Shown here piece by piece: positions 22,328-47,877 of a DNA stretch of 64,000 nucleotides. A program made the position numbers and the translations under genes. The notes under the pieces were generated by a model that ran no database searches, was not told where the DNA came from, and saw only the letters and a list, made by a program, of their open reading frames with translations. Each line of letters starts with the position of its first letter. Position 1 is the first letter of the stretch. The stretch lies in the NCBI GenBank assembly GCA_030149525.1, contig JASBRJ010000049.1:9019-73018 (forward strand). Direction: 5' to 3'. The stretch comes from a bacterium (GTDB lineage: Bacteria > Vulcanimicrobiota > Xenobia > Xenobiales > JADMJV01).

Positions 22328-23611
22328 TCAGCGATTTGCGAAATAACGGATAGTGCGTAGAGCAAGAGTGAGTCCATCCTCTAAGCCATAGCGGGCCGCC
22401 AGCATAACCACATCTTCATCCTGTCCAAACCCGGCGGCGAAAGCGTTGATCTTGGTGGCCAAATAACTGCTACTCAGATCGATCTTTTGCAAAGTCCGAA
22501 CCAGGAGTGGAATTTTCCGAAGGGCTTGCTTCTGCTCATCCTTCTTGGCAGCCTCGAACCAGTTGCAGGGCTTGAGAAAGAGTTCATCACTCACCACCCA
22601 GTCCGGCTGGGAGGCTTTGAAATCTTGCCAGGCCTGATAGCAACGCCTCTCTTGCTCCGGCGTGGTGTAGAAGAGGAGATCGCCTTGAGAGGAATAGACT
22701 TCCCAGAACCTGTGGAGAATCGATTCAAGATCGGTCCCATCCGGCTCGTAAGTGATCTCGACCGCCTCGAACCATTCCGGCAAATCATCCCCTGCGAACT
22801 GACGGTGAACATGACCTATGCGAGTCAGCGTCACTCCCGGCAATCCGCCCAAAAGACTCTCCAGCTTCCAGATAACAGGCGATCTCAGCCCTCGAGTGGC
22901 GGTGAGAGAACCGAAGACAAGTTGTTCGCCCGTCGGGCGCGAGCGATACTCCTCGAGCGGAGAAAACGGCCCGAAAAGTTCGAAGGCATCGCTGCGGGAG
23001 AACGGCTGCACCAATGGCAGAATACTTTTGCCCGTCCGATACGTCACCTGTCCCCGGGTCCAAAAGTTCAGCCCGAAGGAAGCGAACGACCAACCGAGCT
23101 CCGTGAGGTGCTCCAGTTGAGAAGAGGGCTCTTTCGACCAATGCGTTTGTAGCCAGTGACCGATGAGATAGGCCCATACCTCCGTGCGACTCTCACCCTG
23201 ACCGGAAATTTTTCGCAACCGATCTCGAAGCTCGAAAATCCCAGGGCGATTCCGGTCAGGTTTGAGAGTTTGCAAGAAATTCGCCACCTCAGATATCTCC
23301 GTGTGCAGAGCATTCTTGTGAAACGTCTCGATCTCCCAAAAGTCGAGAGCGCTCCAGGTCGAAGCAAACGCCGCTTCCGCTAGAACCGGTAAGAAGAAAT
23401 CGGGCATCTGAGGAGTTCGGGCAAGTTGGGCGTGAAGCAGGCAATCCAGCCAGAGAAGGCGGCTGCGCTCTAGATCTTGGTAGCGAGCGGCCGAACCGGG
23501 CCGCCCGTCGACGATCACAACACCGTTATCCAGGCCGGGAGCCTCTCGGGCTTTCATCTCCGCCAGCATGGCCAAGCTTATTACGGCTCCTAGAGCCTGG
23601 AACACCCACAT
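22328..23611 (-). CDS. Hypothetical protein with a C-terminal degenerate MsrA domain
   Basis: WKLESLLGGLPGVTLTRIG, EAVEITYEP, RFWE, FYTTPEQ, FEAAxxDEQKQALRKIP and ATKINAF align by eye to MsrA. The GCFW motif reads PVIW. Confidence 0.7.
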   Translation of the reverse strand: MWVFQALGAVISLAMLAEMKAREAPGLDNGVVIVDGRPGSAARYQDLERSRLLWLDCLLHAQLARTPQMPDFFLPVLAEAAFASTWSALDFWEIETFHKNALHTEISEVANFLQTLKPDRNRPGIFELRDRLRKISGQGESRTEVWAYLIGHWLQTHWSKEPSSQLEHLTELGWSFASFGLNFWTRGQVTYRTGKSILPLVQPFSRSDAFELFGPFSPLEEYRSRPTGEQLVFGSLTATRGLRSPVIWKLESLLGGLPGVTLTRIGHVHRQFAGDDLPEWFEAVEITYEPDGTDLESILHRFWEVYSSQGDLLFYTTPEQERRCYQAWQDFKASQPDWVVSDELFLKPCNWFEAAKKDEQKQALRKIPLLVRTLQKIDLSSSYLATKINAFAAGFGQDEDVVMLAARYGLEDGLTLALRTIRYFANR

Positions 23612-23666
23612 ACGAAGATTGTACCACTATCAAAGGAAGTGAGGGCGTTGTTGGAAACTTCCAGAG

Positions 23667-24149
23667 ATGCAAATTTACCACAATCCGAGATGCGCTAACA
23701 GGCTGATGCAGAACTCGGACCGAGCCAGGAAATGGGCATTTTTGTCGTGCGGAATCGCAATTTTTGAGGCATATGTGGACATACGGTGAAAAAATTTCGA
23801 TTTCGTACGGCAAATAATGAACTTTTCTGGCGACGGGAGAGTTTTGCATCAGCCTGCTAAATCCCGACAGGCTCTGGCCCAACTCCAGGAGGCCGGCGTG
23901 GAACCCAAGGTCGTCGAGTACCTCAAGACACCTCCGACTCTTTCCCAACTTCAAGACATCCTGGAGGGACTCAACGGTGATTTGAGTCTCATGATTCGCG
24001 AGAAGGACTTGAAGAAAGACGGTTTAGAGCCCAGTCTGGAACTGCTGGCAGAGCAACCCAAATATTTGCAAAGACCGATCCTAATTCGGAATAAGCGGGT
24101 TTCAGTTTGTCGAACTCCGGAGGAAGTGGAAGCTTTCCTGAACTGCTAA
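23667..24149 (+). pseudogene. arsC: ArsC/Spx-family arsenate reductase interrupted by a MITE
   Basis: Removing the 158-bp insert and one CTAA copy restores MQIYHNPRCAKSRQALAQL...YLKTPP...QRPIL (106 aa). As present, the frame stops at TGA 23787-23789. Confidence 0.9.
23699..23856. mobile_element. MITE, 158 bp, 18-bp TIRs, 4-bp TSD CTAA
   Basis: CAGGCTGATGCAGAACTC ... GAGTTTTGCATCAGCCTG (one mismatch), with CTAA at 23695-23698 and 23857-23860. Confidence 0.92.
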
Positions 24150-47808: not shown

Positions 47809-47877
47809 CAGGCTGATGCAGAACTTTTCCGGCGACCGGACGTGATGCTCGAACAGTAGAGTTTTGCATCAGCCCTG
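47809..47877. mobile_element. 69-bp short member of the arsC MITE family
   Basis: CAGGCTGATGCAGAAC...GTTTTGCATCAGCCCTG. Internal GAACTTTTCCGGCGACCGG matches GAACTTTTCTGGCGACGGG of the 23699 element. Flanks are CGAG / CTAG. Confidence 0.8.

Follow-up and report, generated by a model that had tools for sequence, protein, structure and literature searches.

A segregating MITE insertion with IS5-type termini splits an arsC-family gene of a marine bacterium behind its catalytic cysteine codon

The locus described here raises the question of what is left of a gene for an ArsC-family protein when a short repeat lies directly behind the codon for its catalytic cysteine, and whether the open reading frame that is called at this place still encodes a working enzyme. 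The original prediction was that a MITE had recently been inserted there and supplied the gene with a new in-frame start. The window, that is the whole stretch of 64,000 nucleotides that was analysed, corresponds to C136:9019-73018 of a MAG (G000) with 8.27 Mb in 398 contigs. The features of the locus are listed in Table 1.

Table 1. Position of the interrupted gene, the inserted element and the resulting reading frames in the window.
Feature	Position	Strand	Basis
5' part of the arsC-family gene (MQIYHNPRCA), ending with the left CTAA	23667..23698	+	sequence reading, ORF list
Catalytic Cys codon TGC (Cys9)	23691..23693	+	sequence reading; alignment to 3RDW, 3F0I, 2MU0
Target-site duplication CTAA, left copy	23695..23698	.	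empty site with single CTAA
MITE, 158 bp	23699..23856	+	sequence reading, genome copies, fold
Left TIR, CAGGCTGATGCAGAACTC	23699..23716	+	TIR pattern search
Right TIR, CAGGCTGATGCAAAACTC (reverse complement)	23839..23856	-	TIR pattern search
Target-site duplication CTAA, right copy	23857..23860	.	sequence reading
Truncated ORF, 40 aa: 9 native residues and element-encoded residues, TGA at 23787-23789	23667..23789	+	ORF list
Chimeric ORF, 110 aa, MNFSGDGRVLHQPAKSRQ..., from the element-borne ATG: 13 element-encoded residues, then the Cys-less ArsC body; SD absent	23817..24149	+	sequence reading, ORF list, Pfam
Internal GTG ORF, 83 aa, preceded by AGGAGG (23887-23892)	23898..24149	+	sequence reading, public gene calls
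Second MITE of the same family, 68 bp, internally deleted, between convergent genes	47809..47876	+	TIR pattern, copy listing

Reading of the arsC-family frame from its ATG at 23667 gives MQIYHNPRC. The CTAA target overlaps codons 10-11 (GCT AAA), and the element is enclosed by a perfect direct repeat of 4 bp, effectively 5 bp (GCTAA). Its TIRs are 18 bp long and match in 17 of the 18 positions; element and one CTAA together amount to 162 bp. The whole element can be folded into one long hairpin, with -46 kcal/mol compared to -18 for shuffled sequences (z = -10). No ORF of its own was found in the 158 bp, the ORFs crossing it (40, 35 and 110 aa) being run-ons from the flanks. The TIR pattern has four occurrences in the window (chance expectation 0.19), the second pair bounding the shorter MITE. 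Direct reading and the ORF list thus agree with the predicted anatomy in every point, from the coordinates, the TIRs and the CTAA duplication to the TGA at 23787 and the ATG at 23817.

Public sequence data contain the same locus with and without the element. Contigs from the runs X6, X7, X8, X9, X10, X12, X13 and X14 skip exactly 162 bp (23693 is followed by 23856) and have 0-1 mismatches in the flanks, and the exact joined-flank string with a single CTAA is present in six assemblies (L134-L139), which share about 99% identity with the window. The occupied form is present in X2, there as a single contig of 1162 bp with 0 differences, and in X15, while in X1 and X3 unitigs over the junctions were found for the occupied as well as the empty form. 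Unitigs of X1, X3 and X15 cross each junction of the insertion. Eight independent assemblies from several studies (L140-L147) carry the occupied locus, with 0 SNPs in the element. The runs with this locus are metagenomes of marine, ballast-water and hydrothermal-vent origin. The empty sites that the original prediction asked for therefore exist, and 16 contigs in public protein collections encode the restored protein of 106 aa without any difference. In addition, an ortholog from the same genus (G007), which is 60% identical, reads IYHNPRCSKSRQ and is uninterrupted.

These data bear on two other explanations for the interruption. The repeat might have been wrongly joined into arsC during assembly, and members of this repeat family are indeed seen to break contigs and to cause wrong joins; the Logan unitigs of X1 moreover end at both element boundaries. 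However, the identical occupied locus in eight independent assemblies, the 1162-bp contig spanning the insertion and the junction-crossing unitigs of three runs make an assembly chimera extremely improbable. A mis-join of the kind mentioned is found on L148 (676 bp, 1.3x coverage), in which the right flank of arsC follows a copy of the C318 type that shows all 14 diagnostic differences and has CTAG on its left. The protein P0007 (MNFSDDGRV...) from this contig was considered as a diverged occupied allele and was rejected as the product of this repeat-mediated mis-join.

The second explanation takes the occupied state as the ancestral one and lets the empty alleles arise by precise excision, and a direct repeat like the one present here can indeed mediate precise deletion by slippage. 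We regard this as very unlikely. The uninterrupted ortholog argues against an ancestral occupied state, and a gene with an intact frame and a conserved catalytic motif must predate its interruption. In addition, empty alleles are in the large majority, with 36 contigs carrying an 83-aa call and 16 carrying the 106-aa call, compared to 7-8 contigs with the 110-aa chimera. A G at position 23312, common to seven of the eight occupied public contigs (L140-L143 and L145-L147, those covering the site), is absent from empty alleles; this shared linked SNP would fit one insertion event. The window itself has an A at 23312, and at six sites in 23020-23291 its sequence is unlike that of all other contigs, possibly owing to recombination or to a consensus of mixed strains in the MAG.

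The prediction of a recent insertion is borne out by the near-identical flanks of both alleles, by the lack of SNPs in the element in all eight assemblies and by an undamaged arsC body, which is identical between occupied and empty alleles. The 162 bp are missing from orthologs and from conspecific alleles, and the junctions recur in independent assemblies, so that neither of the two outcomes named as refuting the original prediction was observed. The insertion is recent relative to the diversity of the species, yet it is widely dispersed, being found in several unrelated studies.

The element belongs to a family with about 14 full, short or solo loci in G000, four of them 158-219 bp long. Copies of 158 bp are located at C318:9656-9813 (91% identity) and C41:19932-20089 (90%). 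A 219-bp variant at C324:6929-7147 is identical to the arsC copy over the first 57 bases, the copy at C198:3387-3427 consists of TIRs only (41 bp), C294 holds a diverged copy, and solo or short ends are found on C114, C132, C225, C299, C309 and C358. An identical donor copy was not found in the MAG, in which the nearest copies, the C324 variant being the closest, reach 90-93% identity. Beyond this species, the 15 other genomes of the taxonomic family contain almost no members of it. Multiple copies, TIRs, a target-site duplication, the missing ORF, the hairpin fold and the presence/absence polymorphism all fit the original classification as a MITE. A sister subfamily is present at C40:15347-15505 (L008:1485-1643), with the TIR GAGGCTGTTGAYTTAGTC (GAGGCTGTTGA...), an internal identity of about 70% and TTAA as the duplicated target, and a relative of this sister subfamily is found with CTAG in the congener G001 (L114).

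The target sites of the copies in G000 are nearly all YTAR and mostly CTAG, with matched CTAG/CTAG duplications at C41, C198 and C299. Most copies lie exactly at the junction of two convergent genes (C198:3387-3427, C299:13624-13657, C132:17777-17803, C41:19932-20089, C324:6929-7147 and the second MITE of the window). At these junctions, the two genes take their stop codons from the duplicated CTAG, TAG on the left and CTA on the right, and the element follows the ORF end at a distance of 0 bp. An insertion into a palindromic CTAG that both genes share would thus be neutral, because each gene receives its own stop. The three inner bases of each duplication would therefore be under selection as parts of these stop codons.

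In four older copies of G000 the duplications are unequal at one base, and in three of these (C318, C324 and C294) the outermost base is affected. The copies in G000 alone are thus compatible with a duplication of 2-4 bp around TA. The three outermost mismatches would also be expected if the element were of the IS630/Tc1-mariner type, with a CTAG target, a duplication of TA only and a true length of 160 bp (RCAGG...CCTGC). In agreement with this, the base before CAGG is a G in eight of nine left ends in G000 and the base after CCTG is always a C, and the MAG contains two fragments of DDE_3 (IS630-type) transposases. However, the arsC copy has an A and not a G before CAGG, which is matched by the A at +4, and neither of the DDE_3 loci (C97 and C130) has such TIRs nearby. 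The bias at the outer position is explained otherwise, by the retention of the inner TAG/CTA triplets as stop codons of convergent genes. Elements with the same TIRs in other genomes have matched non-palindromic flanks of 4 bp (TTAG/TTAG, TTAA/TTAA and CTAA/CTAA), which supports a duplication of 4 bp and not of TA only. Together with the IS5-family transposase of the only autonomous element that was found with these termini, this leaves the IS630-type reading with little probability.

This autonomous element was found in another metagenome by scanning JGI metagenome contigs for TAR followed by the TIR (L122:3096-4421). It is an IS of 1326 bp with CTAG on both sides and the termini CAGGCTGATGCAAAA, its ends reading CAGGCTGATGCAAAACTC... 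and CAGGCTGATGCAAAATCA..., and it is one complete copy of an IS that is repeated in one metagenome and at whose ends many contigs break off. Its transposase ORF of 362-378 aa contains the domains DUF772 (PF05598) and DDE_Tnp_1 (PF01609). On the IS5 model of NCBIfam (NF033581, cut-off 140) it reaches 236.7 bits, on the IS1182 model NF033551 it reaches 214.7 bits, which is under the cut-off of 270. The IS5/IS1182-type transposase of the original prediction can therefore be narrowed to IS5, given the same termini, the CTAG duplication and the passed IS5 model. The IS5 subgroup, in the descriptions of ISfinder, uses a YTAR target and generates a 4-bp duplication. With this IS and the copies in the MAG, the search for further copies and for an autonomous IS with the same ends, which had been suggested as a check, gave a positive result on both counts.

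The IS on L122 has only the terminal 15-18 bases or so in common with the MITE. The MITE is therefore not a deletion derivative of this particular IS, which is a TIR-sharing element. No homolog of the L122 transposase was detected in G000 or in seven genomes of the same genus; the absence from a MAG fragmented into 398 contigs is weak evidence. A search of G000 with the TIR-pair pattern did not reveal a long pair, and no transposase is located beside the MITE copies of the MAG, including the ORFs near C114, C132, C225, C309 and C358. The MAG's own DDE transposases (three with PF01609, two with DDE_3) were considered as partners and rejected, since their ends are unrelated. A different IS is present on C355 of G000, on the minus strand, about 1.9 kb long, with a DDE_Tnp_1 frame of 610 aa and the inverted repeats GAAGCGCTGCCGGAAA...; CTAG adjoins its end, it is a further CTAG-targeting element of this genome, and its TIRs are unrelated to those of the MITE.

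A scan of genome contigs for the TIR returned mostly chance matches of 18-mers, the real ones being located in MAGs of groundwater Gammaproteobacteria and in a few Betaproteobacteria. MITE-like elements of about 162-265 bp with the same 18-bp TIR and TTAR/CTAA duplications were observed on L030, L036, L054, L070 and L086 (groundwater Gammaproteobacteria MAG) and on L072, and one groundwater gammaproteobacterial MAG has at least nine loci with same-TIR elements. No transposase was found within 2.5 kb of these proteobacterial copies. The same termini thus occur widely across phyla.

MITEs that disrupt or fuse genes, small hairpin-forming elements in or beside genes, are known from other bacteria. 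The Correia elements of Neisseria and the RUP and BOX elements of Streptococcus pneumoniae are co-transcribed with genes and can generate new ORF ends; they duplicate TA or belong to other parent ISs, and regulatory effects are documented for them, which is not the case for the arsC MITE. IS5 of E. coli resembles the system described here in its YTAR target (CTAA/CTAG), its 4-bp duplication and its relation to the L122 transposase with DUF772 and DDE_Tnp_1, but it ends in GGAAGGTGCGAA..., whereas the MITE ends in CAGGCTGATGCA... and has no transposase. Closer to the arsC element are two MITEs derived from the IS5 family, BrickBuilt of Porphyromonas gingivalis and ATR of Neisseria meningitidis, for which ISNme1 has been proposed as parent (PMC4596501). 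Like these, the arsC MITE is short and non-autonomous, has TIRs that match IS5-family ISs with a terminal motif of the ...TGCAAAA type, contains no transposase remnant and is present in tens of copies or fewer per genome (PMC4596501). It differs in its internal sequence, in its exact TIR and in its host, an uncultured marine bacterium; moreover, a parent IS was not detected in its own genome, and one copy was caught segregating inside a coding region. The 158-bp element is thus a new member of this kind of MITE, and the insertion is most probably a segregating knockout that involves no new mechanism.

For the effect on the gene, the nature of its product has to be considered. The restored protein matches PF03960 with 45.1 bits (gathering threshold 24), and its best NCBIfam match is TIGR00014 (glutaredoxin-type ArsC) with 94 bits, which is under the equivalog cut-off of 106.05. 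The closest relatives in the PDB are the arsenate reductases 3RDW, 3F0I, 2MU0 and 1I9D. With Grx-coupled arsenate reductases and YfgD-like proteins of the ArsC family (3RDW, 3F0I and 1I9D) it shares the PF03960 domain and the N-terminal motif IYHNPRCSKSR with its nucleophilic Cys; this Cys and three Arg (R57, R84 and R97) line up in the PDB alignments. We take Cys9, R57, R84 and R97 to be the equivalents of C12, R60, R94 and R107 of R773 ArsC. In contrast to these proteins, the restored protein is shorter (106 aa), stays under the TIGR00014 cut-off and is encoded outside an ars operon, its gene neighbours being a CAP-domain protein and a DcuC-like carrier. Its sequence assigns it to the ArsC family as a YfgD-like protein; arsenate reductase activity itself is not certain.

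The insertion parts the first nine codons, with the HNPRC nucleophile, from the remaining 97. Empty alleles have the N-terminal Cys and the Arg-bearing body in one frame; in the window allele, the element and its in-frame TGA lie between them. The 110-aa ORF retains only positions 43-79 of the PF03960 profile. The original prediction that the element supplies a new in-frame start is right in that the ATG at 23817 exists and is used by gene callers, which report a 110-aa protein with a PF03960 match in eight assemblies; as a translation start it is less convincing, since it is preceded by ACGGCAAATA, without an SD-like sequence, and the product would lack the catalytic Cys. The GTG at 23898, on the other hand, has AGGAGG at a spacing of 5 nt. 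Calls of 83 aa are made even on intact alleles because AGGAGG precedes this GTG. These calls had been suspected to be occupied alleles, which was rejected, as they are empty sites with an internal GTG chosen by the caller, L134-L139 being six loci of this kind. With the conserved HNPRC N-terminus dropped on 36 contigs, the 83-aa start is a start-site mis-annotation. Both the 110-aa and the 83-aa product would be without the nucleophile, and therefore the window allele is, judging from its reading frames, most likely a functional null for thiol-dependent catalysis.

Two contigs of 151 nt from the metatranscriptome X25 (23603-23753 and 23737-23887) cross both junctions with 0 differences, which suggests read-through transcription, DNA carried into the library being the alternative source. 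A scan of the element predicted no sigma-70-like promoter and thus gave no support for an outward promoter. It could be argued that the insertion allele persists with a Cys-less ArsC-fold protein that has acquired a new role, such as non-catalytic binding or a dominant negative effect, or that loss of the reductase is favoured in some water masses. The allele is found in several oceans and studies, its body is undamaged and the RNA-library contigs extend over both junctions; the Cys-less protein could start at the ATG 23817 by re-initiation after the TGA, 27 nt before this ATG, or at the GTG 23898 with its SD. We nevertheless consider a benefit of this kind unlikely.

Taken together, it is highly probable that an IS5-family-derived MITE, moved in trans, inserted into the CTAA of a Grx-type ArsC-family gene, duplicated this CTAA and generated a null allele. 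In this process, a transposase supplied in trans would mobilise the non-autonomous element, and a staggered cut of 4 nt at the CTAA in codons 10-11 would lead to the duplication. Translation from the native ATG would then stop at the TGA of the element after 40 residues. The ArsC body could be translated only from the ATG at 23817 or from the GTG at 23898 with its good SD, and neither product would contain the catalytic Cys. The insertion, young compared to the diversity of the species, would segregate in marine populations beside the ancestral intact allele.

For annotation, the locus calls for caution: the 110-aa "ArsC" is a chimeric ORF without the catalytic Cys, and the in-frame start supplied by the MITE, real as it is in the sequence, is a trap for annotation and has no demonstrated function. 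For population studies, the insertion polymorphism is a ready marker that can be used for strain tracking. The locus documents, in nature, the activity of a MITE family in an uncultured marine bacterium with a large genome. Since the same samples contain occupied as well as empty alleles, a working IS5-type transposase would have been present in this lineage in the recent past.
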